64,000 bases of DNA from Phyllobates terribilis. Its lineage: Eukaryota. The DNA is taken from NCBI RefSeq assembly GCF_046119375.1, contig NW_027362767.1, forward strand, positions 137,702,001 to 137,766,000, written 5' to 3'. Below are positions 7,637 to 57,674 of the stretch, piece by piece (positions within the stretch are counted from its first letter, which is position 1; each line of letters begins with the position of its first letter). A program made the position numbers and the translations under genes. The notes beneath the pieces are model-generated. The model searched no databases. It was not told where the DNA came from and saw nothing but the letters and a program-made list of their open reading frames with translations.

Positions 7637-9251
7637 CAGTGGGTACGGAAAGTATTCAGACCCCTTTAAATTTTTCACTCTTTGGTAAATTCTAAAAAGC
7701 TAATTTTTTTTCTCATTAAAGTACACTCTGCACCCCATCTTGACTGAAAACCCCCCAGAAAAGTAGACATTTTTGCAAATTTACTAAAAAAGAAAAACTG
7801 AAATATCACATGGTCATAAGTATTCAGACCCTTTGCTCAGACACTCATATTTAAGTCACATGCTGTCCATTTCCTTGTGATCCTCCATGAGATGGTTCTA
7901 CTCCTTCATTGGAGTTCAGCTGTGTTTAAATAAACTGATAGGACTTGATTTGGAAAGGCACACACCTGTATATATAAGACCTCACAGCTCACACTGCATG
8001 TCAGACCAAATGAGAATCATGAGCTCAAAGGAACTGCCCAAGGAGCTCAGAGACAGAACTGTGGCAAGGCACAGATCTGGCCAAGGTTACAAAAGAATTT
8101 CTGCATTACTCAAGGTTCCTAAGAGCACAGTGGCCTCCATAATCCTTAAATGGAAGAAGTTTGGGACCACCAGAAGTCTTCCTAGACCTGGCCGTCCAGC
8201 CAAACTGAGCAATCGTGGGGGAAGAGCCTTGGTGAGAGAGGTAAAGAAGAACCCCAAGATCACTGTGGCTGAGCACCAGAGATGCAGTAGGGAGATGGGA
8301 GAAAGTTCCACAAAGTCAACTATCACTGCAGCCCTCCACCAGTCGGACCTTTATGGCAGAGTGGGCAGACGGAAGCCTCTTCTCAGTGCAAGACATATGA
8401 AAGCCTGCATAGAGTTTGCTCAAAAACACATGAAGGACTCCCAGACTATGAGAAATAAGATTCTCTGGTCTGATGAGACAAAGATAGAACTTTTTGGTGA
8501 TAATTCTAAGCGGTATGTGTGGAGAAAACCAGCCACTGCTCATCACCTGCCCAATACAATCCCAACAGTGAAACATGGTGGTGGCAGCATCGTGCTATGG
8601 GGGTGTTTTTCAGCGGCAGGGACTGGACGACTGGTTGCAATTGAAGGAAACATGAATGCGGCCAAGTACAGAGATATCCTGGATGAAAACCTCTACCAGA
8701 GTGCTCTGGACTTCAGACTTGGCCGAAGGTTCACCTTCCAACAAGACAATGACCCTAAGCACACAGCTAAAACAACAAAGGAGTGGCTTCAGAACAACTC
8801 TGTGACCATTCTTGACTGGCCCAGCCAGAGCCCTGACCTAAACCCAATTGAGCATCTCTGGAGAGACCTGAAAATGGCTGTCCTCCAACGTTCACCATCC
8901 AACCTGACGGAACTGGAGAGAATCTGCAAGGAAGAATGGCAGATGATCCCCAAATCCAGGTGTGAAAAACTTGTTGCATCATTCCCAAGAAGACTCATGG
9001 CTGTACTAGCTCAAAAGGATGCTTCTACTCAATACGGAGCAAAGGGTCTGAATACTTATGACCATGTGATATTTCAGTTTTTCTTTTTTAATAAATTTGC
9101 AAAAATTTCTATATTTTTTTTTTTCAGTCAAGATGGGGTGCAGAGTGCACTTTAATGAGAAAAAAATGAACTTTTTAGAATTTACCAAATGACTTCAATG
9201 AAACAAAGAGTGAAAAATTTAAAGGGGTCTGAATACTTTCTGTACCCACTG
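7637..9251 (+). mobile_element. Tc1-family DNA transposon, full length
   Basis: TA-flanked TIRs CAGTGGGTACGGAAAGTATTCAGACCCC at both ends. Confidence 0.95.
8019..9155 (+). CDS. Tc1 transposase (DD34E), stop codon lost, C-terminal read-through
   Basis: [14 protein letters not shown] and [11 protein letters not shown] motifs are intact. The expected ...STxY* end reads on as STQYGAKGL... Confidence 0.85.
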   Translation: MSSKELPKELRDRTVARHRSGQGYKRISALLKVPKSTVASIILKWKKFGTTRSLPRPGRPAKLSNRGGRALVREVKKNPKITVAEHQRCSREMGESSTKSTITAALHQSDLYGRVGRRKPLLSARHMKACIEFAQKHMKDSQTMRNKILWSDETKIELFGDNSKRYVWRKPATAHHLPNTIPTVKHGGGSIVLWGCFSAAGTGRLVAIEGNMNAAKYRDILDENLYQSALDFRLGRRFTFQQDNDPKHTAKTTKEWLQNNSVTILDWPSQSPDLNPIEHLWRDLKMAVLQRSPSNLTELERICKEEWQMIPKSRCEKLVASFPRRLMAVLAQKDASTQYGAKGLNTYDHVIFQFFFFNKFAKISIFFFFSQDGVQSAL

Positions 9252-9925
9252 TAACTACACATAACTTGTGCTGGCTGCAGTAATTCTCGGGTTGTTGGGT
9301 AATATTCGGAGTTAGAAGTCGGGTTACATAATGAATAGATTGTGTGGTGATTGGATGTGCAGTAATTACTGAGCTGCTTACACTTAATTATGGATTTTTT
9401 GTTCTGTAAACACAGGCCATTCTTCCGGCTCTACCATCTACAGTAGTGTTCAGAATAATAGCAGTCCAATATGACTAACCAGATTAATCAATGTTTTTGG
9501 TATAAATTATATTACCACATGTCAAACAATTTACCAGTTGGTGCAGTAGATTCTAAGAAATCCACCAGACTCCGCATTCATGATCTGCATGTGTTTATGT
9601 TTTTGAGTATGTGTATTTGAATAATTAATTGTACGGGGTGTGTTCAATATAATAGCAGTGTGGAGTTCAATTAGTGAGGTCAATCATTCTGTGAAGAAAC
9701 AGCTGAGAATCAGGTGGCCCGTATTTAAGGGTGAAGCCAGCACATGTTGTACATGCATTTCTCCTTGAAAGCCTGAGAAATATGGGTCGCTGGAGACATT
9801 GTTCAGAAGAACAGCGTACTTTGATTAAAAAGTTGACTGGAGAGGGCAAAACTTATAAAGAAGTGCAGACAATGATAGGCTGTTCAGCTAAAATGATCTT
9901 CAATGCTTTAAATGGAAAGCAAAAC

Positions 9926-12900
9926 TGTAATGCACACGCCCGGACTGACTGGCGTGTGCGTGTTTATGTAGTGATTCCACTGTGCCATGAACCGGAGAGT
10001 GACTAAGTATCTGCCCGATCCGACCAAGGTCGCACGACGGCATACGACGCCAGTGCACCAGGGAGGAACCGAGCAGAGGAACCAGGGTCTACTCCAGGTC
10101 AGACTCCGGACACGGCTGTTGACCCACACCGGGGAATACAGAGACAGGCAGACTAGAGCGCAGGCTGGGTAGGGTCCAGTACAGACTGGGAGACAAATTC
10201 GAAACCGCAGACGCGGTGGACAGGGCCGAGCAAAGCGAAACCGCAGACGCGGTGGACAGGGCCGAGCAAAGCGAAACCGCAGACGCGGTGGACAGAGCTA
10301 AGCAAAGCGAAAACCGCAGACGCGGTGGACAGAGCAGAGCAAAGCAAAAACCGCAGACGCGGTGGACAGAGCTGAGCAAAGCGAAAACCGCAGACGCGGT
10401 GGACAGAGCTGAGCAAAGCGAAAACCGCAGACACAGTGGACAGAGCTGAGCAAAGCGAAAACCGCAGACGCGGTGGACAGAGCTGAGCAAAGCGAAAACC
10501 GCAGACGCGGTGGACAGAGCTGGGCAAAGCGAAAACCGCAGACGCGGTGGACAGAGCTGAGCAAAGCGAAAACCGCAGACGCGGTGGACAAGGCTCTGTT
10601 CACACAGAACAGACTAGAAGAGAAAGGCAGAACCAGATACCCACAGGGTACTTGCAGAGAAGTAGCGAGTGGACCACAAACTCACAAACGGAAGTACAGT
10701 GACAATGAGCAGGAGTTAGGTACGAGTACAGACTCTGCAGAAAAAGGAAAGGAACGAACATAGAGAAAAAACAGGTAAAAGATAGGAGAGACTTCAGACT
10801 GGAACTGAGTGTACGGAGGAGACCGACACTGCAGCGGGATACAGGAGCGGGTCTGGGAATACGGCCCCCAGAGAGGCGGGACGAACAGGCAAGGAGCGTG
10901 TTCAGACTGGCCTGGAAATACAGCCTCCAGGAAGGCGGAACGAACAGGCAAGGAACGAGTACAGACTGCAGGTTAAGGTACACAGATAGGATACAGTACA
11001 GACATGGAAACAGATACTGCAAGACTGGTAACATAGACAGGACCTGGCATGTCAGAGACAAAAGCCAACTGACAGGGAAAGATGCTCAGGCATCAGTTAA
11101 TTGGGGCAGCTGGTTTAAATACCAGGTGATAGACAGCAATAGGCTGAGGACGCACAAGGGGTGTGCCTGCAGCAGGTACAAAAAGCAGGAAGTGATCGGG
11201 CGCCGCCCTTAAGCAGCAGACACAGAAGCAAACAGACAGCATGGAGGGAAGCCAGAGAGACACCCTGGACTGGAGATCAAGTGCGCGCTCTTGCACAGTG
11301 GGAGATGGACCACTATGCAAGGACGCCGCCAGGTATGTTACAGTACCCCCCCCCTTACGCCCCCTCTTCTTCAGGCCTGCCAGAATGTTCCGCAGGGAAT
11401 TCGAGGGCCAATCCTTTACTTCAAGGAGATCACTTCCACTGTCCACTGGAGAAACTGGTCTCATCTGGGTAGCTAGGATGCTACCTCCTATCCAGCCATC
11501 CTCAGCAACAGACGAAACGGGTGGAGTACCAGGAACAGCACACAAGGAAGTCTCTCTCCACTTATTATCAGGTAGCACCTGGTCATCAGAGGGTTCAGGA
11601 GACAACTGGAAGTCCTCCGCCGGGTTGGAGGAGTGCAGAGACTCGGGGGTAACCTCTGCTTCGGGGTACATCTTGTCAAACTCACAGGATGAAATGGGCG
11701 AGGTATCAGGTACAAGGTGTAGAAAAGTCCCTGTTACCTTGTTATCTGGTGGTACCCAGGAGGATTCAGAAAACAACTGGGGGTCCTCCGCCGGGTCGGA
11801 ATAGTGCAGAGACTCGGGGGTAACCTCTGCTTCGGAGTACACTAGGTCGGACTCGCTGGATGAAGCGGGCGAGGTATCAGGTACCGAATATAGAAGAGTA
11901 CCTGTCCATTCGTTATCAGGTAGCACCCCGAAGGGTTCAAGAGACAACTGGAGGTCCTCCGCCTGGTCGGAGGGGTGTAGAGACTCGGTGGTAACCTCTG
12001 CTTCAGAGTACACTTGGTCGGACTTGCTGGATGAAGCGGGCGAGGTATCAGGTACTGAGTATAGGAGAGTACCTGTCCATTCGTTATCAGGTAGCACCCC
12101 GAAGGGTTCAGGAGACAACTGGAGCTCCTCCGCCTGGTCGGAGGGGTATAGAGACTCGGGGATAACCTCTGCTTCGGAGTACACTAGGTCGGACTCACTG
12201 GAAGAAGCGGCCGAGGTATCAAGTACCGAGTATAAGAGAGTCTCTGTCCATTCGCTATCAGGTAGCACCCCGAAGGGTTCAGGAGACTCCTGGAGGTCCT
12301 CCGCCTGGTCGGAGGGGTGTAGAGACTCGGGGATAACCTCTGCTTCGGAGTACACTAGGTCGGACTCACTGGACGAAGTGGGCGAGGTATCAGGTACAGA
12401 GTATAAGGAAGGCTCTGTCCATTCGCTACCAAGTAGCACCCCAAAGGGTTCTGGAGACAACTGGAGGTCCTCCGCCCAATCGGAGAGGTGTAGAGACTCG
12501 GGAGTAACCTCTGCTTCGGAGTACACTAGGTTGGACTCACTGGACGAAGCAAACGAGGTATCAGGTACCGAGTATAGGAGAGTCTCTGTCCATTCGCTAT
12601 TAGGTAGCACCCCGAAGGGTTCAGGAGACAACTGGAGGTCCTCCGCCTGGTCGGAGGGGTGTAGAGACTCGGGGATAACCTCTGCTTCGGAGTACACTAG
12701 GTCGGACTCACTGTACGAAGTATCAGGTACAGAGTATAGGGAAGGCTCTGTCCATTCGCTACCAGGTAGCAACCCGTAGGGCTCTGGAGACAACTGGAGG
12801 TCCTCCGCCTGGTCGGAGGGGTATAGAGACTCGGGATTAACTACCGCTTTGAGGTACCCATTGTCAGGCTCACAGGACGGAGCGGACGAAGTATCGGGTA

Positions 12901-15439
12901 CCGGGTGTAGGGAAGTCTCTCTCCATTTGTCATCAGGTGGTATCCCGGAGGATTCAGGAGGCAACAGGGGGTCCTCCGCCAGGTAGCAGAGATGCACAGA
13001 CTCGGAGGTAATCACTGCTTCAGAGTACCCTTGGACAGGCTCACCGGTTAAAGTGGGTGAAGCATCAGATACCGGATGCAGGAAGTCCTCCTGTGTTGAT
13101 TCTGGGTAGGCAGTAGTCTCTTCAGGCAGGAGAACAGGTGCGCTACCCACGCACATTACCCGTCGGGGCTGCTCCGGGATACCGGGAAATGAAGCTTCAG
13201 CAAGAACCTCAAGGTTGGAATCAGGAGGTCTTTGGGAGAACAGACCCTGGCGTGACGGCTTGCCTCTACGCCTAACACGTCTGGACTGCCTCTTGAGATC
13301 GTGAGAAGTATTCCGGAGAGCGTAGTCATCCTGTCTGGATTCTGGGTGGGCAGTAGTCTCTTCGGGCAGGAGGACTAGTGCGCTACCCACACACATTACC
13401 CGTCGGGGCTGCTCCGGGATATTGGGAAGTGAAGCTTCAGCAGGGGCTTCAGGGTTAGGGTCCTCGAAGACCATACGAAAGGCCACCAGGAAGGCCTGCA
13501 GGTCAAGGACGACAGGATCCCATGCTTCCCATAGGAGGGTGACCCATTTCAAGGCATCACCCGCTAGGTAGTCAATCATAAAGGCCACTTTAGCCCAATC
13601 GGAAGGAAAATAGAGAGGGTAAGCCTTGAAGTGTAGCATGCATTGCTCCACAAAAGCACGACTCTGTCTTGGATCCCCATAGTAACGTGGCGGATCCGCA
13701 GGAACGAGAGCTGATAGATCCATCTGGACGGGTGCGGAATTCGCCTGGAACTCAGCTAGAGAAAAAAAAAATTTTTTATTTTTAATGCACGTATTCGCTG
13801 GAAAAAAGTCTCAGAGAGCGAAGGCCGTGGGGCTCAACGGGAACCATGGCCTGAGCATGCTGTAATGCACACGCCCGGACTGACTGGCGTGTGCGTGTTT
13901 ATGTAGTGATTCCACTGTGCCATGAACCGGAGAGTGCCTGGAGGGGCGTAACTAAGTATCTGCCCGATCCGACCAAGGTCGCACGACGGCATACGACGCT
14001 AGTGCACCAGGGAGGAACCGAGCAGACGAACCAGGGTCTACTCCAGGTCAGACTCCGGACACGGCTGTTGACCCACACCGGGGAATACAGAGACAGGCAG
14101 ACTAGAGCGCAGGCTGGGTAGGGTCCAGTACAGACTGGGAGACAAATTCGAAACCGCAGACGCGGTGGACAGGGCCGAGCAAAGCGAAACCGCAGACGCG
14201 GTGGACAGGGCCGAGCAAAGCGAAACCGCAGACGCGGTGGACAGAGCTAAGCAAAGCGAAAACCGCAGACGTGGCGGACAGAGCTGAGCAAAGCGAAAAC
14301 CGCAGACGCGGTGGACAGAGCTGAGCAAAGCGAAAACCGCAGACGCGGCGGACAGAGCTGAGCAAAGCGAAAACCGCAGACGCGGTGGACAGAGTTGAGC
14401 AAAGCGAAAACCGCAGACGCGGTGGACAGAGCTGAGCAAAGCGAAAACCGCAGACGCGGTGGACAGAGCTGAGCAAAGCGAAAACCGCAGACGCAGTGGA
14501 CAGAGCTGAGCAAAGCGAAAACCGCAGACGCAGTGGACAGAGCTGAGCAAAGCGAAAACCGCAGACGCGGTGGACAGAGCTGAGCAAAGCGAAAACCGCA
14601 GACGCGGTGGACAGAGCTGAGCAAAGCGAAAACCGCAGATGCGGTGGACAGAGCTGAGCAAAGCGAAAACCGCAGACGCGGTGGACAAGGCTCTGTTCAC
14701 ACAGAACAGACTAGAAGAGAAAGGCAGAACCAGATACCCACAGGGTACTTGCAGAGAAGTAGCGAGTGGACCACAAACTCACAAACGGAAGTACAGTGAC
14801 AATGAGCAGGAGTTAGGTACGAGTACAGACTCTGCAGAAAAAGGAAAGGAACGGACATAGAGAAAAAACAGGTAAAAGATAGGAGAGAGTTCAGACTGGA
14901 ACTGAGTGTACGGAGGAGACCGACACTGCAGCGGGATACAGGAGCGGGTCTGGGAATACGGCCCCCAGAGAGGCGGGACGAACAGGCAAGGAGCGTGTTC
15001 AGACTGGCCTGGAAATACAGCCTCCAGGAAGGCGGAACGAACAGGCAAGGAACGAGTACAGACTGCAGGTTAAGGTACACAGATAGGACACAGTACAGAC
15101 ATGGAAACAGATACTGCAAGACTGGTAACATAGACAGGACCTGGCATGTCAGAGACAAAAGCCAACTGACAGGGCAAGATGCTCAGGCATCAGTTAATTG
15201 GGGCAGCTGGTTTAAATACCAGGTGATAGACAGCAATAGGCTGAGGACGCACAAGGGGTGTGCCTGCAGCAGGTACAAAAAGCAGGAAGTGATCGGGCGC
15301 CGCCCTTAAGCAGCAGACACAGAAGCAAACAGACAGCATGGAGGGAAGCCAGAAAGACACCCTGGACTGGAGATCAAGTGCGCGCTCTTGCACAGTGGGA
15401 GATGGACCACTATGCAAGGACGCCGCCAGGTATGTTACA
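9926..15439 (-). mobile_element. Non-autonomous Ty3/Gypsy (Tf1/sushi-like) LTR retroelement, full length
   Basis: LTRs 9926-11342 (1417 bp) and 13861-15439 (1579 bp) with TGTAA...TTACA ends. TSD AAAAC (9921-9925 and 15440-15444). PPT at ~11343-11370. Removing the element restores the host Tc1 codons KWKAKPERRG. Confidence 0.95.
11093..13723 (-). CDS. Gag capsid-N-terminal-domain protein with nine ~57-aa acidic repeats, 876 aa
   Basis: N-terminus PPRYYGDPRQSRAFVEQC...KVAFMIDYLAGDALKWVTLLWE...FRMVFEDP matches the PEG10/LDOC1/RTL-type (DUF4939-like) capsid N-domain. 171-bp repeat period. No zinc knuckle, protease, RT or integrase motif is visible. Confidence 0.82.
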   Translation of the reverse strand: MDLSALVPADPPRYYGDPRQSRAFVEQCMLHFKAYPLYFPSDWAKVAFMIDYLAGDALKWVTLLWEAWDPVVLDLQAFLVAFRMVFEDPNPEAPAEASLPNIPEQPRRVMCVGSALVLLPEETTAHPESRQDDYALRNTSHDLKRQSRRVRRRGKPSRQGLFSQRPPDSNLEVLAEASFPGIPEQPRRVMCVGSAPVLLPEETTAYPESTQEDFLHPVSDASPTLTGEPVQGYSEAVITSESVHLCYLAEDPLLPPESSGIPPDDKWRETSLHPVPDTSSAPSCEPDNGYLKAVVNPESLYPSDQAEDLQLSPEPYGLLPGSEWTEPSLYSVPDTSYSESDLVYSEAEVIPESLHPSDQAEDLQLSPEPFGVLPNSEWTETLLYSVPDTSFASSSESNLVYSEAEVTPESLHLSDWAEDLQLSPEPFGVLLGSEWTEPSLYSVPDTSPTSSSESDLVYSEAEVIPESLHPSDQAEDLQESPEPFGVLPDSEWTETLLYSVLDTSAASSSESDLVYSEAEVIPESLYPSDQAEELQLSPEPFGVLPDNEWTGTLLYSVPDTSPASSSKSDQVYSEAEVTTESLHPSDQAEDLQLSLEPFGVLPDNEWTGTLLYSVPDTSPASSSESDLVYSEAEVTPESLHYSDPAEDPQLFSESSWVPPDNKVTGTFLHLVPDTSPISSCEFDKMYPEAEVTPESLHSSNPAEDFQLSPEPSDDQVLPDNKWRETSLCAVPGTPPVSSVAEDGWIGGSILATQMRPVSPVDSGSDLLEVKDWPSNSLRNILAGLKKRGRKGGGTVTYLAASLHSGPSPTVQERALDLQSRVSLWLPSMLSVCFCVCCLRAAPDHFLLFVPAAGTPLVRPQPIAVYHLVFKPAAPIN

Positions 15440-16699
15440 AAAACCAGAGAGACGTGGAAGAAAACGGAAGACAACGGAAGACTACACTTCGAATGGATGG
15501 AAGAATAACCAGAAAGTCAAAGGCTCAGCCAATGATCAGCTCCAGGATGATCACAGACAGTCTCGCGTTACCTGTGAGTACTGTGACAGTTAGAAGACGC
15601 CTGTCTGAAGCTAATCTCTTAGCAAGAAGTCCCTGCAAAGTCCCACTGTTAAACAAAAGACAAGTACTGAAGCGGATGCAATTTGCAAAAGAACACATCA
15701 ACTGGCCTAAAGAGAAATGGAGAAACATTTTGTGTACTGATGAAAGCAAAATTGTTTTTTTTGGTTCCAAGGGCGGCAGACAGTTCATCAGATGACCCCC
15801 AAACTCTGCATTCAAGCCACAGTACTCTCTGAAGACAGTGAAGCATGGTGGTGCAAGCATCATGATATGGGCATGTTTCTCTTACTATGGTGACAGACCT
15901 ATTTACCGCATACCAGGGATCATGGACCAGTTTGCATATATTAAAATACTTGAAGAGGTCATGTTGCCTTACGCTGAAGAGGATATGCCCTTGAAATGGG
16001 TGCTTCAACAAGACAAAGACCCTAAAAACATCCGAAATGAGCAAAATCTTGGTTCCAGTCCAACAAAATTGAGGTTATGGAGTGGCCAGCCCAAGCCCCG
16101 GACCTTAATCCGATAGAACACTTGTGGGGTGACATCAAAAATGCCATTTCTGAGGCAAAGCCAACAAATACCAAAAAATTGTGGAATGTAGTTATTGCAT
16201 CCTGGGCTGAAATAACAGCTGACAGGTGGTAGAAGTTGGTTGACTCTATGCAACATAGGTGTGAAGCAGTTCTAAAAAACTGTGGGTATACAGCTAAATA
16301 TTAGGTTAGTGATTCACAGGAATGTAAAATCCTGAAAAAAAAAGAAGAGAGTACATATTGTGAGTTTCTAAAGACAAATGCAGACACTAATTTTTAGAAC
16401 AGAACAATGTTAATTTTTTGTTATTTTCTGTAAAGTAGTTAAAAATTATATCATGTCTCCTCATGTTTTGAATTACAAAACAGTGTGCAATGTTCCCAAT
16501 AGATAGAAATAAAAACTAATATACAGATTTTGTGCTTAAGGCTGCGTGCCCACAATGCATTTTTCAAGTGTTTTCGCCGCGGAATTTCCGCAGCGAAAAC
16601 GCTTAAAAAATGCTTGGTAATACGTCTCCCATGGTCCCCAATGATAATCCGCATGTGCTATGCCCATGCTGTGGAAATTTCCGCTGCCGATTACAAGAT

Positions 16700-17547: not shown

Positions 17548-18234
17548 CATATATATGTATACTCACACACATTTCTCAATGTCTACTCCTCGGGGTGGAT
17601 TGCTCATGTGACCAGTGATCGTGCTGTGACCCGGATCGTGCGCTAATCTTTTCCATTTTAAGTAACTGTGCACAAGGGCCTGGGAGATTTCTGCGGTGAA
17701 TGCGGAGGATCCGGTTTTCTGGTATTCACTACGAGTCTGTAAACACGCAGGTGACAGACAATATGGAGGGCGTGGTGTGTGGTCAGCAGACCGTGACCGA
17801 CAACTGTGCTAGACCCCACAGGCCTCCTAAATCAATAATATCTATTTAATAGTAAGGACGGGTTTGTCTAAGCGTTCGGGACGATCTCCTTACACTCACA
17901 GATCTGCTATTCCTCGCCACTTTCACACCACAGTTCTCAGTCTGTGATTTCACCCCGTATAATAAGCGGCACATAATTGGCGCCGGGTACAAGTACATGG
18001 TTGCTGCTTGCGGTGGCTGCCTCCAGACGTGACGGGGCAGCATTACACACCCAGCCGTCTACCTACGTCAATATATATCCTATGTGCTATGTCTATAAGG
18101 GGCTATCTGATAAGGTACAGGCACACAGAGGCCTCTGCTACTCGCTGGGCCACAAATATCTATGGTCTATGTTGTCCAAAGCAACCAATCAGATCTCAGC
18201 TTTCATTTTACTATAAGGCCTGCGATATCATATA

Positions 18235-22980
<4,746 letters not shown>

Positions 22981-23597: not shown

Positions 23598-26500
23598 ATG
23601 AATTCCCAGGAGCAGACGGCCTCCGTTATCCGGGCAGAGTGGAGCCCGGCCATGTTCCCGGTGTATGAAGAGGACAGTAACAGCAGCTGTGGGTCCATGG
23701 GGGCGTCTGCTCTGAGCCTGAAGACCCCCGAGTGTGAGGACAATGACCCCGACGCTGAGGAGAAGCTGTGCTCCGTGTGCGGGGATAAGGCCAATGGCTA
23801 CCACTTCCACGTCCTGACCTGCGAGGGCTGTAAGGGATTCTTCAGGTAAACGCTCCGGCCACATCTCAGGTCTATCCCCTCCCGGAGAGGAGCGCCGCCA
23901 TCTTCCTAGGAGTCCGCTCTGGCTCCTCTATGACTACGGAGCTGACAACAGTCCTGACTTTACCAGGATAATTCTGTGAACTGAACCAAAAAGAGGCGAG
24001 GTTTAGACTACCTTGACTAAAGGTGGAGTCATGAGGGAGGGGCTTAAATGCTTGATTTGGGGCATAGAAATTTCAGTGAATCGCCATTAAGGACCCTGAT
24101 GAAGCTGAGGAACATTGCTCATTGGGGGCTGTAGTGCTGGGCGGATTTTATGTGATGATAGATTACGGTATATTATAGTATAGTACGATACAGAATATTA
24201 CATTGTGGCAGATTACGGTATATTATAGTATATTAAGGTACAGTATATTACATTGTGGCAGATTACAGTATAATATAGTATATTAAGGTACAGTATATTA
24301 CATTGTGGTACATCATAGTATATTACGGTATGGTGTATTACAGTGTATTATAGTATATTACGGTACAGTATATTGCATTTTGGTAAATTATGGTATAATA
24401 TAGTATGTTACATTACAGTATATTACATTGTGGTAGATTACTGTACATCACGGTGTCGGGATGGTATATTATAGTATATTAAGGTATAGTATATGACATT
24501 ATGACAGATTACAAAATAATATAGTATATTATGGTGCAGTATATTACAGTGTGGTATATTGCGGTGCAGTATATTAGTGTGGTAGGTTACGGTATATAAC
24601 GGTACAGTATATTACAGTGTGATATATTGCGGTGCAGTATATTAGTGTGGTAGATTACGGTATATTATGGTACAGTATATTAGTGTGGTAGATTACGGTA
24701 TTTTATGGTACATTACATTACAGTGTGGTAGATTATGGTATAATAGTATACTAGAGTACAGTATATTACAGTGTGGTAGATTACAGTACAGTATATTACA
24801 ATGTGGTCGATTACAGTATAATAGTATATTACCGTACAGTATATTAGTGTTGTAGATTACGGTATATTAAGGAACAGTATATTATTGTGTGGTAGATTAT
24901 GGTATATTACAGTACAGTATATTACAGTGGCAGATTACGGTATATTACAGTACATTATATTACGGTACAGTATACTACAGTGTGGTAGATTATAATATAT
25001 TATGGTACAGTATATTAGTGTGGTAGATTATGGTACGGTATATTACAGTGTGGTAGGTTACGGTATATTATGGTACAGTATATTATAGTGTGGTAGATTA
25101 TGGCATATTACAGTACAGTATAATACAATGTGGTAGATTACGGTATATTACAGTATATTATGGTACAATATATTAATGTGGTAGATTATGGTACAGTATA
25201 TTAGTGTGGTAGAATATGGTATATTACAGTACAGTATATTACAGTGTGGTAGATTACAGTATAATAGTATATTATGGTACAGTATATTAGTTTGGTAGAT
25301 TACGGTATATTACAGTACATTACAGTGTGGTAGATTACGGTATATTACGGTATATTACGGTACAGTATATTAGTGTGGTAGATTATGGTACAGTATATTA
25401 CAGTGTGGTAGATTATGGTATAATAGTATATTACAGTATAGTATATTAGTGTGGTAGATTATGGTATATTACAGTATATTAAGGTACAGTATTAGTGTGG
25501 TAGATTATGGTACAGTATATTAGTGTAGTAGAATACAGTATATTCCATTACAGTATATTAAAGTGTGGTAGATTACAATGTTACGGTACAGTATATTAGT
25601 GTGGTAGATTACGGTATAATAGTATTATAGTACAATATATTACAGTGTGGTAGATTACGGTATATTACAGTATATTATGGTACAGTATATTGCAGTGTGA
25701 TAGAGCACAGTACATTACAGTATATTACAGTACAGTATTAGTGTGGTAGATTACGGTATATTACAGTATATTACGGTACAGTAGATTGCAGTGTGGTAGA
25801 TTACGGTATATAACAGTATATTACGGTACCGTATATTGCAGTGTGGTAGATAACGGTATATTACAGTATATTATGGCACAGTATATTGCAGTGTGGTAGA
25901 TTACGGTTTATTACGGTACATTAGATTGCAGTGTAGTAGATTACGGTATATAACAGTATATTACAGTACCGCATATTGCAGTGTGGTAGATAACGGTATA
26001 TTACAGTATATTATGGCACAGTATATTGCGGTGTGGTAGATTACGGTATATTACGGTACAGTATATTGCGGTGTGGTAGATTACGGTATATTACAGTATA
26101 TTGCGGTGTGGTAGATTACGGTACAGTATATTGCGGTGTGGTAGATTATGGTACATTACAGTATTACGGTACAGTATTAATGTGGTAGATTATGGTACAT
26201 TACAGTATATTTCAGTACAGTATATTGCAGTGTGGTAGATTACGGTATATTACAGTATATTACGGTGTGGTAGATTACGGTACAGTATATTGCGGTGTGG
26301 TAGATTACGGTATGTTACAGTACATTATGGTACAGTATATTGCGGTGTGGTAGATTACGGTACAGTATATGCCGGTGTGGTAGATTATGGTATGTTACAG
26401 TACATTATGGTACAGTATATTGCGGTGTGGTAGATTAAGGTACAGTATATTGCGGTGTGGTAGATTACGGTATGTTACAGTACATTATGGTACAGTATAT

Positions 26501-29500
26501 TGCGGTGTGGTAGATTACGGTACATTACAGTACATTATGATACAGTATATTGCAGTGTGGTAGATTACGGTACGATATGTTGCACTGTGGCAGATCACAG
26601 TATATCACTATATATTATATATGACGGTAGACTTGATTTCGCACGTTCTGCTTGTTTCCCCCATGATCCCCTCAGGCGCTCCATGACTAAAGGTTTGACC
26701 TTCACCTGCCCGTTTACCCGCTCCTGCCCGGTCACAAGAGCCAAGCGGAGACGGTGCCAAGCCTGCCGGCTGCAGAAATGCCTGGAGGTGGGCATGAGGA
26801 GAGACAGTAAGTTCACCGGCCCCATCTGCCTCTCCTACACTGACTTGTAGTCTAAGGAAGCTTCAGAAGCAATTACTAAATGTGGAGGGCAAAGGTCACC
26901 GACCCCACGACCCCCATCCTCACCTCCGCCAAGTCTCTACAAACATGGCTCCCTCCTAACTGCCAGAAGATAGTACAACTCTACTGGCCCTGGGTGAGGG
27001 GCCCCGAGCCAACACCTGTGCTACCGGGGAGGTAACAAGCACAAGCACCACAATCACTGGAGGGGGAGAAGCAATTTTGGATTTTTGCTGTATAGCTCTG
27101 TGTTTGCAGCCATTCCACTGCCCACACGGAGGGGGGAGCGATGCCATCTGAGCGGTGCCCCCCTGGCCCTGACAATGGGCGCGCTCTGCGGTATAATCCG
27201 CACTGGGGCGGAGGAGTCATGGCCACAGGGACAGATCTATAAATAGCCCCCTCCCCCGCCCGCCGCCATTTATTCCTTTCATCTTATTTCAATAAACATT
27301 ATCCAGAGCGCTGCGCCCCCCGGGGGAGACGAGGAGGCGGAGGGGACGGGGCCCCCAGCACCATTATAACAGTATTATGGGATTCTGCTCCTGGCGCGCA
27401 CACAAAATCCCGGCTCAGTGAGCAAATGTGTGAATTATTAAACGGAGGGTTTATCCCAGGACACGTCCCGGCCTGGAGCCGTTATATAACCATTACAGCA
27501 TTTATAGAGAGGGGTCAACGCGGCCTGAACGGTGTCACACACCACCAAGGGGGAGACGGGCGGTGGGGAGGAAAAGACAGGAACAGGGCAAAATCATCAG
27601 AAAAAGCTAAAATAATTATAGTAATAACAAATAAATAATGAGAATATAAAATAATAATAGAAAACATTATAAAGTATTAAACTATATTAATAAAATAATA
27701 TAAACTAAATATAAAAGAATGAATAATATAACACAATAACAAATAGAAAATTAATAATATAAAAATAAACAATAATCGTAAAATATATCATGATTAATAA
27801 ACATACCGTACAGACCAAAAGTTTGGACACACCTTCTCATTTAAAGATTTTTCTGTATTTTCATGACTATGAAAATTGTACATTCACACTGAAGGCATCA
27901 AAACTATGAATTACCACATGTGGAATTATATACTTAACAAAAAAGTGTGAAACAACTGAAAATATGTCTTATATTCTAGGTTCTTCAAAGTAGCCACCTT
28001 TTGCTTTGATGACTGCTTTGCACACTCTTGGCATTCTCTTGATGAGCTTCAAGAGGTAGTCACCGGAAATGGTTTTCACTTCACAGGTGTGCCCTGTCAG
28101 GTTTAATAAGGGGATTTCTTGCCTTATAAATGGGGTTGGGACCATCAGTTGTGTTGTGCAGAAGTCAGGTGGATACACAGCTGATAGTCCTACTGAATAG
28201 ACTGTTAGAATTTGTATTATGGCAAGAAAAAAGCAGCTAAGTAAAGAAAAACGAGTGGCCATCATTACTTTAAGAAATGAAGATCAGTCAGTCCGAAAAA
28301 TTGGGCAAACTTTGAAAGTGTCCCCAAGTGCAGTTGCAAAAACCATCAAGCGCTACAAAGAAACTGGCTCACCTGAGGACCGCCCCAGGAAAGGAAGACC
28401 AAGAGTCACCTCTGCTTCTGAGGATAAGTTTATCCGAGTCACCAGCCTCAGAAATCGCAGGTTAACAGCAGCTCAGATTAGAGACCAGGTCAGTGCCACA
28501 CAGAGTTCTAGCAGCAGACACATCTCTACAACAACTGTTAAGAGGAGACTTTGTGCAGCAGGCCTTCATGGTAAAATAGCTGCTAGGAAACCACTGCTAA
28601 GGACAGGCAACAAGCAGAAGAGACTTGTTTGGGCTAAAGAACACAAGGAATGGACATTAGACCAGTGGAAATCTGTGCTTTGGTCTGATGAGTCCAAATT
28701 TGAGAACTTTGGTTCCAACCACCGTGTCTTTGTGCGATGCAGAAAAGGTGAACGGATGGACTCTACATGCCTGGTTCCCACCGTGAAGCATGGAGGAGGA
28801 GGTGTGATGGTGTGGGGGTGCTTTGCTGGTGACACTGTTGGGGATTTATTCAAAATTGAAGGCATACTGAACCAGCATGGCTACCACAGCATCTTGCAGC
28901 GGCATACTATTCCATCCGGTTTGCGTTTAGTTGGACCATCATTTATTTTTCAACAGGACAATGACCCCAAACACACCTCCAGGCTGTGTAAGGGCTATTT
29001 GACCAAGAAGGAGAGTGATGGGGTGCTACGCCAGATGACCTGGCCTACACAGTCACCAGACCTGACCCCAATCGAGATGGTTTGGGGTGAGCTGGACCGC
29101 AGAGTGAAGGCAAAAGGGCCAACAAGTGCTAAGCATCTGTGGGAACTCCTTCAAGATTGTTGGAAGACCATTTCCGGTGACTACCTCTTGAAGCTCATCA
29201 AGAGAATGCCAAGAGTGTGCAAAGCAGTCATCAAAGCAAAAGGTGGCTACTTTGAAGAACCTAGAATATAAGACATATTTTCAGTTGTTTTACACTTTTT
29301 TGTTAAGTATATAATTCCACATGTGTTAATTCATAGTTTTGATGCCTTCAGTGTGAATGTACAATTTTCATAGTCATGAAAATACAGAAAAATCTTTAAA
29401 TGAGAAGGTGTATCCAAACTTTTGGTCTGTACTGTATATAATAAGTATAAAATAATATAAAAGATAAAAAATAAAAATAATGAAAATAGGAATATGATAG

Positions 29501-31532: not shown

Positions 31533-34500
31533 AAAATGATATACCAAAAATATTCTAAATAATGATAACAATAATTATAAACAACGATTATCAATAGTAG
31601 CAATACATTTTTTTGCTACTACGAATATTAATATATGAAATAAAATAGCAATGGAAATATATAAATTATTAACAATATACAACAATAATAATTATTATAA
31701 GGTAGGGAAAAAACAAGAAGAATTACAAAAATAACAAAATAAAGAAAATAAATCAATAATATAAAGCAATACCAACATAAGAAGATCAAAAAATACAGTT
31801 ATATGAAAAAGTTTGGGCACCCCTATTAATCTTAAGCTTAATGTTTTATAAAAATTGGTGTTTTTGCAACAGCTATTTCAGTTTGATATATGTAATAACT
31901 GTTGGACACAGTAATGTTTCTGCCTTGAAATGAGGTTTATTGTACTAACAGAAAATGTGCAATCTGCATTCAAACAAAATTTGACAGGTGCATAAGTATG
32001 GGCACCTCACCAGAAAAGTGACATTAATATTTAGTAGATCCTCCTTTTGCAAAAATAACAGCCTCTAGTCGCTTCCTGTAGCTTTTAATGAGTTCCTGGA
32101 TCCTGGATGAAGGTATTTTTGACCATTCCTCTTTACAAAACAATTCCAGTTCAGTTAAGTTTGATGGTCGCCGATCATGGACAGCCCTCTTCAAATGATC
32201 CCACAGATGTTCAATGATATTCAGGTCTGGGGACTGGGATGGCCATTCCAGAACATTGTAATTGTTCCTCTGCATGAATGCCTGAGTAGATTTGGAGCGG
32301 TGTTTTGGATCATTGTCTTGCTGAAAGATCCATCCCCTGCGTAACTTCAACTTTGTCACTGATTCTTGAACATTATTGTCAAGAATCTGCTGATACTGAG
32401 TGGAATCCATGCGTCTCTCAACTTTAACAAGATTCCCGGTGCCGGCATTGGCCACACAGCCCCAAAGCATGATGGAACCTCCACCAAATTTTACTGTGGG
32501 TAGCAAGTGTTTTTCTTGGAATGCTGTGTTTTTTTGCCGCCATGCATAACGCCTTTTTGTATGACCAAACAACTCAATCTTGGTTTCATCAGTCCACAGG
32601 ACCTTCTTCCAAAAAGAAATTGGCTTCTCCAAATGTGCTTTTGCATACCTCAGCTGACTCTGTTTGTGGCGTGCTTGCAGAAACGGCTTCTTTCGCATCA
32701 CTCTCCCATACAGCTTCTCCTTGTGCAAAGTGCGTTGTATAGTTGACCGATGCACAGTGACACCATCTGCAGCAAGTTGATGCTGCAGCTCTCTGGAGGT
32801 GGTCTGAGGATTGTCCTTGACTGATCTCACCATTCTTCTTCTCTGCCTTTCTGATGTTTTTCTTGGCCTGCCACTTCTGGCCTTAACAAGAACTGTCCCT
32901 GTGTTCTTCCATTTCCTTACTATGTTCCTCACAGTGGAAACTGACAGGTTAAATCTCTGAGACAGCTTTTTGTATCCTTCCCCTGAACAACTATGTTGAA
33001 TAATCTTTGTTTTCAGATCATTTGACAGTTGTTTTGAGGAGCCCATGATGCCACTCTTCAGAGGAGATTCAAACAGGAGATTCAAACAGGAGAACAACTT
33101 GCAAGTGGCCACTTTAAGTAGCTTTTCTCATGATTGTATACACCTGGCTATGAAGTTCAAAGCTCAATGAGGTTACAAAACCAAAAAAGTGCTTTAGTAA
33201 GTCAGTAAAAAGTAGGTAGGAGTATTTAAAACAAGAAAATGATAAGGGTGCCCATACTTATGCACCTGTCAAATTTTGTTTGAATGCAGATTGCACATTT
33301 TCTGTTAGTACAATAAACCTCATTTCAAGGCAGAAACATTACTGTGTCCAACAGTTATTACATATATCAAACTGAAATAGCTGTTGCAAAAACACCAATT
33401 TTTATAAAACATTAAGCTTAAGATTAATAGGGGTGCCCAAACTTTTTCATATAACTGTATATATAGCAATGACAAAAACAACAAAATATAAAAATAATAT
33501 AGTTATAAAATAATAAAGGATGAGGGTTAAACAATTAAAAATATAAAAATAATAATACATATATAATAATTATAAGCTAATAGTAAAACCTATTGAAGTA
33601 ATGAAAACAAAGCTAATATAAAAACAATCATAATCAGGGATGGGATGATAGAAGCAGGGCTGTGGAGATGGTAAGCCAAACCTCCGACTCCACAGCCCGA
33701 CCTCACTACTGAGCGTGTACATAAAGTGCAGCAGTGGTCACTACTGAGCGTGTACATAAAGTGCAGCACTGGTCACTACTGAGCGTGTACATAAAGTGCA
33801 GCAGTGGTCACTACTCAGCGTGTACATAAAGTGCAGCAGTGGTCACTACTGAGCGTGCACATAAAGTGCAGCAGTGGTCACTACTGAGCGTGTACATAAA
33901 GTGCAGCACTGGTCACTACTCAGCGTGTACATAAAGTGCAGCAGTGGTCACTACTCAGCGTGTACATAAAGTGCAGCACTGGTCACTACTGAGCGTGTAC
34001 ATAAAGTGCAGCAGTGGTCACTACTCAGCGTGTACATAAAGTGCAGCACTGGTCACTACTGAGAGTGTACATAAAGTGCAGCACTGGTCACTACTCAGCG
34101 TGTACATAAAGTGCAGCACTGGTCACTACTGAGCGTGTACATAAAGTGCAGCACTGGTCACTACTCAGCGTGTACATGAAGTGCAGCACTGGTCACTACT
34201 CAGCGTGTACATAAAGTGCAGCAGTGGTCACTACTCAGCGTGTACATAAAGTGCAGCAGTGGTCACTACTCAGCGTGTACATAAAGTGCAGCACTGGTCA
34301 CTACTGAGAGTGTACATAAAGTGCAGCACTGGTCACTACTCAGCGTGTACATAAAGTGCAGCACTGGTCACTACTGAGCGTGTACATAAAGTGCAGCACT
34401 GGTCACTACTCAGCGTGTACATAAAGTGCAGCACTGGTCACTACTCAGCGTGTACATAAAGTGCAGCAGTGGTCACTACTCAGCGTGTACATAAAGTGCA

Positions 34501-37500
34501 GCAGTGGTCACTACTCAGCGTGTACATAAAGTGCAGCACTGGTCACTACTGAGCATGTACATAAAGTGCAGCAGTGGTCACTACTCAGCGTGTACATAAA
34601 GTGCAGCACTGGTCACTACTGAGAGTGTACATAAAGTGCAGCACTGGTCACTATTCAGCGTGTACATAAAGTGCAGCACTTGTCACTACTGAGAGTGTAC
34701 ATAAAGTGCAGCAGTGGTCACTACTGAGCGTGTACATAAAGTGCAGCAGTGGTCACTACTGAGCGTGTACATAAAGTGCAGCAGTGGTCACTACTGAGCG
34801 TGTACATAAAGTGCAGCAGTGGTCACTACTCAGCGTGTACATAAAGTGCAGCAGTGGTCACTACTGAGCGTGTACATAAAGTGCAGCAGTGGTCACTACT
34901 GAGCGTGTACATAAAGTGCAGCAGTGGTCACTACTGAGCGTGTACATAAAGTGCAGCAGTGGTCACTACTCAGCGTGTACATAAAGTGCAGCACTGGTCA
35001 CTACTGAGCGTGTACATAAAGTGCAGCACTGGTCACTACTCAGCGTGTACATAAAGTGCAGCACTGGTCATTACTGAGCGTGTACATAAAGTGCAGCACT
35101 GGTCACTACTCAGCGTGTACATAAAGTGCAGCACTGGTCACTACTCAGCGTGTACATAAAGTGCAGCACTGGTCACTACTGAGAGTGTACATAAAGTGCA
35201 GCACTGGTCACTACTGAGAGTGTACATAAAGTGCAGCACTGGTCACTACTCAGCGTGTACATAAAGTGCAGCACTGGTCACTACTGAGCGTGTACATAAA
35301 GTGCAGCAGTGGTCACTACTCAGCGTGTACATAAAGTGCAGCACTGGTCACTACTGAGCGTGTACATAAAGTGCAGCACTTGTCACTACTGAGAGTGTAC
35401 ATAAAGTGCAGCAGTGGTCACTACTGAGCGTGTACATAAAGTGCAGCAGTGGTCACTACTGAGCGTGTACATAAAGTGCAGCAGTGGTCACTACTGAGCG
35501 TGTACATAAAGTGCAGCAGTGGTCACTACTGAGCGTGTACATAAAGTGCAGCAGTGGTCACTACTGAGCGTGTACATAAAGTGCAGCAGTGGTCACTACT
35601 GAGCGTGTACATAAAGTGCAGCAGTGGTCACTACTGAGCGTGTACATAAAGTGCAGCAGTGGTCACTACTCAGCGTGTACATAAAGTGCAGCACTGATTC
35701 ATCTCAACTAAAATCCGAGATCCTGAGATCAGGAACAGCACAGACATTTATAGGACATTTCATAACTTTCCCAAATTCTTTTGAAAACTAGGAGTCAGTC
35801 CATTTTATACCGACTCCAACTGCACCAAAATGGACCCCGATTCCACAGCCCTGGTTAGAAGACTCTGCCATGAAAACATCCTGAGGGCGGAGGGCATCTC
35901 TAACATAAATTTTGTTTTCGACTTCCAGTGATTATGTCGGAGGACGCCCTGATGGCGAGACGTGAGCTGAGACTGAGGAAGAAGAAGGAACGTCTGCAGA
36001 GGATACAGAAGGAGGCAGAGGTGGGATCCCTGACCGAGGAGCAGAAGCAGCTGATAGCGATCCTGATCGACGCTCACCAGAAACACTTCGACTCCAATCT
36101 AGAACATTTTGTGGATTACAGGGTGAGGGGATACACCGGTGTACTGTATCTAATCTCATCATGTGTGATACTGTCATCTGAGCTTTGTATAAATACCTAT
36201 CATGTACGTTGCGGTTTGTGTATAATATAATCCCTGAGAGGCCGGTGGGTGTATAATATAATCCCTGGGTGACCGGTGGGTGTATAATATAATCCCTGGG
36301 TGGCCGGTGGGTGTATAATATAATCCCTGGGTGACCGGTGGGTGTATAATATAATCCCTGGGTGGCCAGTGGGTGTATAATTATAATCCCTGGGAGGCCG
36401 GTGGGTGTATAATATAATCCCTGGGTGGCCGATGTGTGCATAATATAATCCCTGGGAGGCCGGTGGGTGTATAATATAATCCCTGGGTGGCCGGTGGGTG
36501 TATAATATAATCCCTGGGTGACCGGTGGGTGTATAATATAGTCCCACGGTGGCCGCTGGGTGTATAATATAATCCCTGGGTGACCGGTGGGTGTATAATA
36601 TAATCCCTGGGTGACCGGTGGGTGTATAATATAATCCCTGGGAGGCTGGTGGGTGTATAATATAATCCCTGGGTGGCCGGTGGGTGTATAATATAATCCC
36701 TGGGTGACCGGTGGGTGTATAATATAGTCCCACGGTGGCCGCTGGGTGTATAATATAATCCCTGGGTGGCCGGTGGGTGTATAATATAATCCCTGGGTGA
36801 CCGGTGGGTGTATAATATAGTCCCACGGTGGCCGCTGGGTGTATAATATAATCCCTGGGTGACCGGTGGGTGTATAATATAATCCCTGGGTGACCGGTGG
36901 GTGTATAATATAATCCCTGGGTGGCCGGTGGGTGTATAATATAATCCCTGGGTGACCGGTGGGTGTATAATATAATCCCTGGGTGACCGGTGGGTGTATA
37001 ATATAATCCCTGGGAGGCTGGTGGGTGTATAATATAATCCCTGGGTGGCCGGTGGGTGTATAATATAATCCCTGGGTGGCCGGTGGGTGTATAATATAAT
37101 CCCTGGGTGACCGGTGGGTGTATAATATAATCCCTGGGTGACCGGTGGGTGTATAATATAATCCCTGGGTGGCCGTATAATATAATCCCTGGGTGACCGG
37201 TGGGTGTATAATATAATCCCTGGGTGGGCGGTGGGTGTATAATATAATCCCTGGGTGACCGGTGGGTGTATAATATAATCCCTGGGTGGCCGGTGGGTGT
37301 ATAATATAATCCCTGGGTGACCGGTGGGTGTATAATATAATCCCTGGGTGACCGGTGGGTGTATAATATAATCCCTAGGTGGCCGATGTGTGTATAATAT
37401 AATCCCTGGGTGACCGGTGGGTGTATAATATAGTCCCACGGTGGCCGCTGGGTGTACACAATAGCAGGGGGTGAGCAGATCTCCTCTACACATCCGGTTT

Positions 37501-45100: not shown

Positions 45101-45714
45101 TGGGGCAGGCGAGTGGTGGAGCAAGGTGTCCCCGGCAAGAGAGGGCGGAGGAGCTGCCGCAGCTGGTACCTGTACACACGTGGAGCCCGAGGGAGAGGTA
45201 CCGCAGCCGGGGGAAGGCCATGAGTCCTGCACGGGCACTACAACCCTCAGCATGGAGCTACAAGTCCCAGCATGTCCTGTGAGAGCACAGCATATTCTGG
45301 GACTACAAGTCCCAGCCTGGCGCTCCCACGATATGCTGAGATTTCTGGGGTGTATCTGATTGCTGTATCTAAGCCGTGTCTGTATCTCATCAGGTGATGT
45401 GTGTGCAGCCTCCGCCTGGGATGATGGCGCTGCGCCCCCCGGAGGACAGTGCCCTGTGAGAGGTAAGTGGTTGTTTGACCCCCACAGCCAGTGCAGGGTC
45501 CTCATACACAACACTACATGATGAGCGGGGTGTAAGGAGCCACTCCGGAGAGGGTTAACCCTGAGCCCTGGGGGGACGATAGAGCAAAGTTCTGGAGCCT
45601 CCAGGTCACCGACCTTATCAGATCAGCATTGTATGGGGACGAGGCGGGAGATGGCGCCCGAGATAATGGGCAATACACTACCTGTATCACTAGATAATGC
45701 CCAGGTTATACCGC

Positions 45715-55900: not shown

Positions 55901-56684
55901 GGTAGGTAGCATCAGGACCCTGGGGAAGGGGGGTGGGGATAGGTAGGTAGCGTCAGGACCCCGGGGAAGGGGGGGGGGGATAGGTAGGTAGCTTCAGGAC
56001 CCCGGGGAAGGAGGGGGGGGATAGGTAGGTAGCGTCAGGACCCCGGGGAAGGAGGGGGGGGATAGGTGGGTAGTGTCAGGACCCTGGGGGGGAGATGGTA
56101 GGGAGTGTTAGGACCCCCGGAGCTCCAGTGTACAGATCTCTTCCATTCCCAGGCGGAGATCCTGGAGCTGAAGGAGGATGGGAAGCTGGAGGTTCTCCTC
56201 GACTCTCTGGATAACCTGGAGCGAGAGGCCGGAAATAACATGGAGGTGCAGTGGTGAGTGCCGAGATCTCCATTACTGTGCACAGACCTCACAGCTGAGG
56301 GTGTGTTACCATTGTAGTCCCCCCCCCTCCTCCTCGCCTTCAGGCGTCCTAGTGGGGTCCCGGAGGAGGACATCCGCAGCCACCTGGTGCCGTACCTCTT
56401 GAAGCAGCGGGAATACCTGCGCAGGCTCTTAAAGGAGAAGCGGCAGGAGAATGCCCGGCTGGCGCAGTCCGTCCTGGCCGGGAGGGAGAAGATAGAGGAG
56501 ATGCAGAGAGAGATCTTGAGGAGGCAGCAGGCCTGGCAGGTAGTAAAGGAGAAGAGATGCTATAGCACAAGTACTACAACTCCCAGCAATATCACATTTA
56601 GTCTTTGTCTTCTTGCTTTAGAGTGTGAGCCAGTCGCAGCGGGATCTGCTGCTCTCCCTTCACAGCTCCAGGGACGGGATCTGA
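52907..56684 (+). CDS. pmf1: Polyamine-modulated factor 1 (Mis12 complex, Nnf1 family), 5 exons, ~204 aa
   Basis: Exons 52907-53055, 54465-54570, 56153-56253, 56344-56539, 56622-56684 (615 nt, phases consistent). Motifs include YQRFASCY...SIYEQF and WRPSGVPEEDIRSHLVPYLLKQREYL. It lies between slc25a44 and bglap, as in human. AATAAA at 56748. Confidence 0.9.
53500..54360. repeat. 40-bp minisatellite (CTAGCGGCGCTCTTGCTGCCCGGCTGTCGGTAGGTGACTC) in pmf1 intron 1
   Basis: Period measured as 40. Confidence 0.96.
54588..56090. repeat. G-run minisatellite (GGTAGCGTCAGGACCCCGGGGAAGGGGGGGGGATAGGTA) filling pmf1 intron 2
   Basis: Direct reading; the poly-G length is variable and may include sequencing error. 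Confidence 0.95.
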
Positions 56685-56747
56685 CGGCTCTGGTTCTCCA
56701 GCATCTTTCTCCATATTGTGAGACATTTGGTTTTGTCGTTTTCTGTC

Positions 56748-56753
56748 AATAAA
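56748..56753 (+). terminator. pmf1 polyadenylation signal AATAAA
   Basis: 64 nt after the stop codon, followed by a GT/T-rich tract. Confidence 0.65.
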
Positions 56754-57117
56754 GTGTTTGTTTTCTTTTTCACTTTTCTTCATTTTAGAATAAACCCATA
56801 ATAAGAAAATGCGACCCACCTAATGGCAGTGTGAGCAGTGATGGAGGGGGATTGGGGTCTCAGTGGTGCTGGCTCCGGGGGCTTCTGTAGCACTGCTGTG
56901 AAGACATGCTCCCTTGAGTACATTGGGAGTTATAGTCGTGAATGATGGAGCTCGTGGTTGTTTACTGGGGTTAGAAATCACTGCGGTCCTTCCTGTCTGT
57001 AACTAAACAAGCTGTGGTTTCAGGCTCGGGCCGAGGTCTGTGCGCTGCGGTCTCCTGTGAACTCCATCCCCTCAGCACTGACATGTGGACGAGACTTTAC
57101 TGCCATCAGTCCCAGCA

Positions 57118-57615: not shown

Positions 57616-57674
57616 CCGCGATTCTCAGAATACAGCAGTAGTGTTATCTGTAGATGTGATGAACAGATCTGCAC

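Follow-up and report, generated by a model that had tools for sequence, protein, structure and literature searches.

What might an LTR retrotransposon gain from encoding only half of a capsid protein? The question is raised by an element in the window, that is, the whole 64,000-nucleotide stretch of Phyllobates terribilis DNA analyzed here. An earlier note on this DNA had described the element as a young insertion with near-identical LTRs and an interior free of pol, and both statements hold: outside the VNTR, the 1,028 bases that align between the LTRs contain 7 substitutions, next to one 14-bp indel, the insertion is bordered by the target-site duplication (TSD) AAAAC and carries a polypurine tract (PPT), and its interior of 2,518 bp, with a single 876-aa frame, gave no matches to pol domains. 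The insertion target was a Tc1/mariner element, split at 9925/15440, of which the right flank matches PF01498. The window contains another Tc1/mariner sequence, a transposase frame of 422 aa in which both an HTH and a DDE domain are present, at 7887-9155 on the plus strand, and long minisatellite arrays, with periods of 20-71 bp, fill positions 1-1833, 18209-21526, 24160-26600, 33703-37456, 45697-48484, 53500-59300 and 60586-64000.

Anatomy and ancestry of the element

Immediately interior to the 5' LTR, a stretch of 10 bases complements LTR position 252, which lies 30 nt below the TATA-like box (Table 1). The self-primer is paired with its primer-binding site (PBS) in both the MFE and the centroid folds of the leader, and a pairing of 10-11 nt is present in 58 of the 68 copies scored. 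According to the accessible text of bioRxiv 10.1101/2022.12.06.519325, a self-priming PBS is a hallmark of Tf1/sushi chromoviruses. Because the RNA 5' end, at its presumed start site, complements the PBS just inside the 5' LTR, the element is, on sequence grounds, a non-autonomous derivative within this group. The family shares with the Tf1/sushi chromoviruses, as far as that text describes them, the self-priming PBS, the 5-bp TSD and, probably, the chromodomain-integrase ancestry, but lacks RT, RNase H, the integrase core and protease, and its chromodomain is decayed.

Table 1. Features of the element, in window coordinates
Feature	Position	Strand	Basis
pol-less LTR element	9926-15439	minus	LTR pair and TSD
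TSD AAAAC (5 bp)	9921..9925; second copy 15440-15444	.	
5' LTR, 1,579 bp; U3 ~251 bp; long R/U5; 37-bp VNTR at 14151-14687	13861..15439	-	
TATA-like box TATTTAAA, 30 nt above self-primer; presumed promoter	15211..15218	-	
Self-primer, complementary to PBS; presumed RNA 5' end	15179..15188	-	
Self-priming PBS, Tf1/sushi type	13849..13858	-	similar PBS in autonomous relatives
Relic of ancestral gag start, now a 21-codon upstream ORF	13782..13847	-	comparison with autonomous leader and L130
Pyrimidine tract and AG, putative splice-acceptor-like site, ~33 nt above ATG	13756..13771	-	in 73/85 copies
Capsid N-terminal domain, aa 1-92, under purifying selection	13448..13723	-	
First ~36-aa repeat (from aa 95), decayed start of capsid C-domain	13334..13441	-	
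Basic patch LKRQSRRVRRRGKPSRQ, aa 143-159; protein-level conservation between families	13247..13297	-	
Second copy of ~36-aa repeat (from aa 175)	13094..13201	-	
Array of 171-bp (57-aa) P/S/E/D-rich units; unit number differs between copies; open frame, neutral residues	11471..13074	-	
Decayed integrase linker and chromodomain end, closing with KKRGRKGG over PPT	11345..11530	-	
PPT with G run of variable length (9 in studied copy)	11343..11372	-	
83 read-through codons into 3' LTR; not a conserved protein part	11093..11342	-	
3' LTR, 1,417 bp; VNTR 10202-10590	9926..11342	-	

The assignment of the first ~90 residues to the N-domain of a capsid, also proposed in the earlier note, holds. The DUF4939 profile matches aa 11-86 with an E-value of 1.4e-6 and 28.5 bits, slightly below the cut-off of 29, and a profile of autonomous Gag matches aa 10-109 with a probability of 99.7, stopping at aa 109. 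The predicted model of the domain consists of five helices (pLDDT 82), and its best structural matches are capsid lobes of retroelements (dArc1, Z 9.6, rmsd 2.9, 77 aligned; the comparison with the Ty3 N-domain gives Z 7.2, rmsd 2.4, 73 aligned), such Z values being middling for helical folds. Backed by the sequence match, the model agrees with the identification of aa 1-92 as a capsid N-lobe. The nearest named public homologues of this domain are amphibian Gags, at most 51% identical, and a caecilian protein automatically named LDOC1 is among the top matches (49%). Other searches gave little: word-index searches for homologues returned nothing at E 0.001 or 0.01, the PDB sequence search reached the Ty3 capsid no better than at E 0.11, Foldseek found no match at E 0.001, and the atlas had no usable match to aa 95-400. 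Among the domain profiles, Ty3_capsid, Retrotrans_gag and the zinc knuckle have no match in the element; all three occur in autonomous Gag.

Downstream of the N-lobe, the earlier description requires revision. The two repeats said to replace the C-domain and zinc knuckle exist, at ~36 rather than ~38 aa, but the first aligns with the start of the C-domain of autonomous Gag. The array exists as well, although it comprises eight complete units of 54-57 aa and a partial ninth rather than nine units of ~57 aa, and the short unit misses 9 bp, not 15. Near the end of the interior, aa 732-793 can be aligned with a related integrase, namely with its linker and the end of its chromodomain (36-40% over 72 columns at E 1e-4; the DNA profile gives E 8e-14); the Pfam Chromo profile has no match in the element, and the chromodomain is present in relatives. 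Given that the C-domain start and the chromodomain end align, and that, over 1.2-1.4 kb, the gag and protease of an autonomous clade of relatives run colinear with a pol-less sister copy (E 3e-37 to 6e-74), the alignments identify the ORF as an in-frame deletion product of gag-pol with later repeat expansion. For the source of the 57-aa unit, there was no match in the five autonomous copies compared (best E 1.2), and the idea that the unit derives from the SH3 region of integrase is without support.

The 876-aa frame is real, but its final 83 codons are read-through into the 3' LTR, and its end is set by the mutable G run of the PPT, the length of which varies from 7 to 13 among copies. Among 44 open copies, 19 frames end at the first LTR bases, 18 after 41-157 LTR codons and 7 after 13-14 codons. 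The distance from the ATG to the PPT is divisible by three in 62 of 85 copies, as are 10 of the 12 distances found more than once; in the LTRs, 17 of 20 widely shared indels are not multiples of three (in a rough alignment). The exceptions to the open frame, a mid-array frameshift common to 2 dispersed copies and a near-end frameshift in 5 near-identical copies, indicate that the full tail is not strictly needed.

The leader of the element spans 1,465 nt with 8 upstream ATGs (1-2 in autonomous relatives), which argues against easy translation from genomic RNA. Together with the relic of the old gag start and the acceptor-like tract, this long, ATG-rich leader makes it an issue how the ORF is translated. 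Among the joints listed for contigs of public runs X1-X5 and X9, runs of guessed or unknown kind and considered without a silent control stretch, there was no GT-AG joint to the acceptor-like site. The nine public runs, X1-X9, come from three organisms (A, B and C), with a share of words of 0.26-0.38; the contigs of X1-X5 and X9 are 85-99% like the element, and relatives are therefore probably present in related species.

Copy number, decay and selection

The exact 26-nt LTR-PBS pattern occurs 3,067 times in the 10.6-Gb genome, a lower bound on the copy number. With at least that many copies, the element belongs to a mobile, multi-copy family, as the earlier note had supposed, and a single-copy artefact or a single-copy derivative is ruled out. 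In a sample by position (the first 40 LTR-PBS places on one chromosome, 37 of them with a 3' LTR in reach), interiors measure 1.1-2.9 kb, none of the 40 loci shows pol, the autonomous polyprotein matching Gag residues 44-193 alone in the interiors, and the median divergence of LTR pairs is 1.07% (24 pairs). The frame is open to the PPT in 17 of these 37 copies and broken in 20; among the nearest 40 copies, it is open in 27 of 37. When private change of 0.3-0.8% is simulated under an assumed indel rate, 65-31% of the copies stay open, so that copies, once inserted, decay neutrally. Three loci (L001, L003, L013) are tandem LTR-interior-LTR-interior-LTR arrays with a common middle LTR, and, in the LTRs of a variant copy (L097), the antisense strand of the VNTR runs without a stop for 255-380 codons, which probably reflects the unit itself (compare the VNTR at 14151-14687 of the window).

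Private changes are those that followed insertion, and changes common to several copies occurred mostly on replicating lineages. The 37 nearest copies alone yield too few shared changes for a test of selection. In 73 copies, changes in the N-domain (aa 1-92) that are present in at least three copies comprise 25 nonsynonymous (N) and 27 synonymous (S) ones, with pN/pS of 0.35 (p 2e-4), against 0.98 for private changes (shared versus private, Fisher p 0.009); for aa 93-245, the shared pN/pS is 1.05. No stop is common to three or more of these copies, and one is common to two. Because the N-domain is a mosaic, with a synonymous distance between subfamilies of ~0.3 as opposed to 0.08 downstream, the test was repeated within N-domain types, leaving aside 2 sister copies as well as 7 others that were in tandem or near-identical; this gave 5 N/10 S, pN/pS 0.19 and p 0.002 for 45 copies, and 14 N/11 S, 0.49 and 0.06 for 31 copies. 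Against a pol-less sister copy, dN in the N-domain is 0.12-0.17 at dS 0.24-0.46, and, in aa 93-185, 0.30-0.35 at dS 0.30-0.45; with dS similar, the N-domain value is under half the downstream one, which places the constraint after the loss of pol. In a codon model of 16 copies, neutral tips included, the tree-wide omega comes to 0.55 in the N-domain, 0.36 in the basic patch and 1.36 over the remainder of aa 93-185, and fixing it at 1 costs ~5-7, 2 and 1 log units, respectively. By these comparisons, the N-domain is under purifying selection along replicating lineages.

The basic patch, which the earlier reader had singled out before the test, is probably under purifying selection too, judging from a test that spans 17 codons. 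Compared with sister copy L126, it differs by 0-2 N/4-6 S and its flanks by 27-33 N/11-15 S (Fisher 0.01 and 0.03 for two pairs); in other sister copies, it shows up to 4 N. The patch as such is absent from the autonomous Gag compared.

The array presents a different picture. The earlier note took units that had diverged and yet remained open as a hint of selection, and the open frame is indeed kept, but the amino acid divergence is neutral: pN/pS is 0.94 when pooled among the units of the studied copy, and 1.02 for widely shared variants in 385 units from 75 copies. Stops are absent from 156 shared single-step variants and present in 7 of 111 private ones (p 0.002), and the other five frames of the array have shared stops at 4-12 positions; because the units exchange sequence, these counts are not fully independent. 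In the array and tail, therefore, the variant counts describe a frame that is kept open and residues that are neutral. The special role suggested for the acidic tail finds no backing in these residues, and acidity is absent from the pol-less sister family (net charge per 100 aa of +3, against -11 to -17 in the studied family), which makes the idea of an acidic tail a weak one.

Overall, the proposal that the protein is under selection holds, through the N-domain constraint in shared changes and the open frame. Selection by the host is not seen, because private changes are neutral and stops occur in the expected number; the same neutrality speaks against the restriction of a partner for the benefit of the host that had been considered. 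Host domestication of the studied copy is ruled out by neutral private changes and by the thousands of LTR-flanked copies.

Relatives and candidate helpers

A sister pol-less family (L108, L114, L126, L169), with LTRs ~68% and N-domains ~75% alike, carries the decayed C-part of Gag and a decayed protease where the studied family has most of its array, and the same PPT ending. As for autonomous elements with similar LTR ends or PBS, the search for which the earlier note had proposed, the chromovirus family L152-L171 has a similar PBS, a self-primer at LTR position ~250 and the PPT in common with the studied family, as well as a 100-nt U5 block that is 80-83% alike; the N-domains are 47-49% identical. 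This family has 9,808 loose candidates in the genome; 20 copies, chosen because they resemble one copy, are mostly broken, and the divergence of their LTR pairs is 2.4-24% (12 pairs). A more distant autonomous family, very young and intact, with a single 1,467-aa frame (L037, L051, L052 and many of the DUF4939 candidates), has LTRs that are 99.9% identical, a similar self-priming PBS, a different PPT and an N-domain 34% identical to that of the studied family.

The accessible part of PMC9744471 gives PBS, termini and age as criteria for a partner. By these, L152-L171 fits in PBS and termini and the very young family in age, not in sequence, so that both are only candidate helpers. An autonomous element with the LTR or a near N-domain of the studied family was not found in the small part seen of 46,493 DUF4939 candidates; one helper pattern search gave 10 matches, all of them copies of the studied family, and another gave 0. 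A score of 0.00 for the predicted complex of the N-domain with the related Gag capsid gave no verdict either way. A second, independent pol-less family (L175-L185, for example, G000 C7:468161982-468165371) is very young and has frames of 854-868 codons, in which a whole Gag, 78% identical to that of a related autonomous family, is fused to protease, the integrase zinc domain, SH3 and chromodomain, with RT, RNase H and the integrase core deleted.

Possible roles of the half-capsid

The reading that we prefer, with somewhat better than even chances, is that the protein of this pol-less family acts in cis as an adaptor for boarding the capsid of a helper. By analogy with RTL8 and PEG10, the N-domain would join the Gag lattice of the helper; the arginine-rich patch would retain the RNA of the element itself, although the patch would suit a nuclear-import signal equally well; and this RNA would be packaged with the RT and integrase of the helper. 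The tail may be kept open so that translation reaches the 3' LTR, for example, sparing the RNA the decay associated with a long 3' UTR; what the tail consists of, and how it is charged, would then be incidental. Selection along lineages without selection on inserted copies suggests that the protein helps the locus that encodes it, and a product freely shared among 3,000 copies would be open to cheats. In the accessible text of PMC11684626, RTL8, a lone N-domain less than 30% identical to PEG10, enters PEG10 particles but also reduces their release, which counts against a helpful adaptor, as do the greater age and mostly broken state of the sampled copies of the closest autonomous family. Furthermore, the constraint, at omega 0.2-0.55, is only moderate, part of the selection signal could stem, through N-domain mosaicism, from recombination with an unsampled family, and a spliced message, if used, would weaken strict cis action.

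Given that everything after the N-domain is open but neutral, translation itself might be what is selected, with ribosomes running to the 3' LTR for RNA stability or assembly routing and the N-domain having at most a minor targeting role. The sister family, with its different middle of decayed Gag and protease in one frame ending at the PPT, and the independent pol-less family, which also fuses gag in frame to the PPT, are consistent with this explanation, which nevertheless leaves the amino acid constraint on the N-domain and patch unexplained; we consider it unlikely, though likelier than the two explanations that follow. Little credence goes to a decaying deletion derivative that is mobilized by cis signals alone and whose coding signal either was inherited or reached it as an import, through template switching, from an autonomous family that was not sampled. 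The N-domain mosaic, the many upstream ATGs and the 20 broken copies among the 37 sampled by position, matching neutral decay, would all be expected of such a derivative. However, alleles of the studied and sister families are ~75-97% alike, and the closest autonomous N-domains found reach 43-54% identity (the best public one, 51%); the family N-domain end running into an autonomous C-domain gave 0 pattern matches, and, among the 8 of 11 autonomous-type tails before TGTAACAT that were examined, none had the LTR of the studied family. Nor can import account for the stop-free shared variants of the array, which is unmatched in the autonomous elements tested.

A half-capsid could, alternatively, poison autonomous capsid assembly in the manner of RTL8 or Ty1 p22, as copy-number control or host defense. 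The inhibition of PEG10 particle release by a lone N-domain, as given in the accessible text of PMC11684626, would fit, and so would the sampled copies of the closest autonomous family being older than the studied family, but host-level selection would keep inserted copies, in which private changes are neutral and stops as expected, and a helper-blocking element would not reach 3,000 young copies unless packaging were gained too. We regard such interference as very improbable. The adaptor reading can be taken further, to a version that we advance tentatively, as possible rather than probable: the element would be a mobile half-capsid parasite in which an arginine-rich patch, newly under constraint, took the place of C-lobe and zinc knuckle, and which boards the helper capsid through N-lobe contacts and trades N-lobe alleles by recombination. 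It would stand at the end of a reduction series within one genome (autonomous; Gag and protease; N-lobe and decayed protease; N-lobe and array) and serve as a living model of the pre-domestication state of RTL8/LDOC1-type genes.

Mobile elements encoding only Gag, or Gag and protease, are already known in plants and vertebrates (accessible parts of PMC8704663, PMC9744471, PMC12067270 and PMC4585706). The plant TR-GAG, RLG_Sabrina_SA and RLG_WHAM elements resemble the studied family in being LTR elements of high copy number without RT and integrase and with one Gag-derived ORF, and are described as mobilized by a distant partner with only the PBS and termini in common (PMC8704663, PMC9744471, same parts). 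Two LTRs, a TSD, a single Gag-derived ORF, no pol and many copies are all found here, but a complete Gag is absent: the plant elements keep the whole Gag (and protease), and the studied family has only an intact N-lobe, without C-lobe, zinc knuckle and protease, and would hence not be expected to form particles by itself. Zebrafish Bik-1/Bik-2, chicken ENS-1/ERNI and Xenopus 1A11 and Xretpos are likewise vertebrate, recently mobile or multi-copy and pol-less, with a Gag-like ORF; in the accessible text, Bik and ENS are endogenous retroviruses, and Bik-1 has a full-length Gag and a role in host development (PMC12067270, PMC4585706). The studied family, in contrast, derives from the Tf1/sushi chromoviruses, keeps half a capsid and shows no sign of selection at the host level. 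It shares a lone DUF4939-type N-lobe and sushi-like ancestry with the mammalian SIRH/RTL genes RTL8, LDOC1 and PEG10 (PMC11684626, PMC11011659, accessible parts), yet RTL8 and LDOC1 are fixed host genes (PMC11011659, likewise), unlike this mobile, LTR-flanked and lineage-selected family with a basic patch and a long drifting tail. In the literature searched, no mobile family came up that has the N-lobe alone and is selected along its lineages; Repbase and most subscription journals, in which the family may already be on record, lay outside that search.

The usual view of non-autonomous LTR elements is that they either travel as passengers without coding content or supply a whole Gag. In this family, selection along the lineages of the element itself acts on half a capsid. 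If the protein is indeed a cis adaptor, this would be a new way of parasitizing the particle of a retrotransposon, would suggest a pre-domestication route for the lone N-lobe genes RTL8 and LDOC1, and would give a lead to a minimal tag with which RNA might be loaded into PEG10-like particles. With thousands of copies in the genome, the selection test is repeatable at scale.
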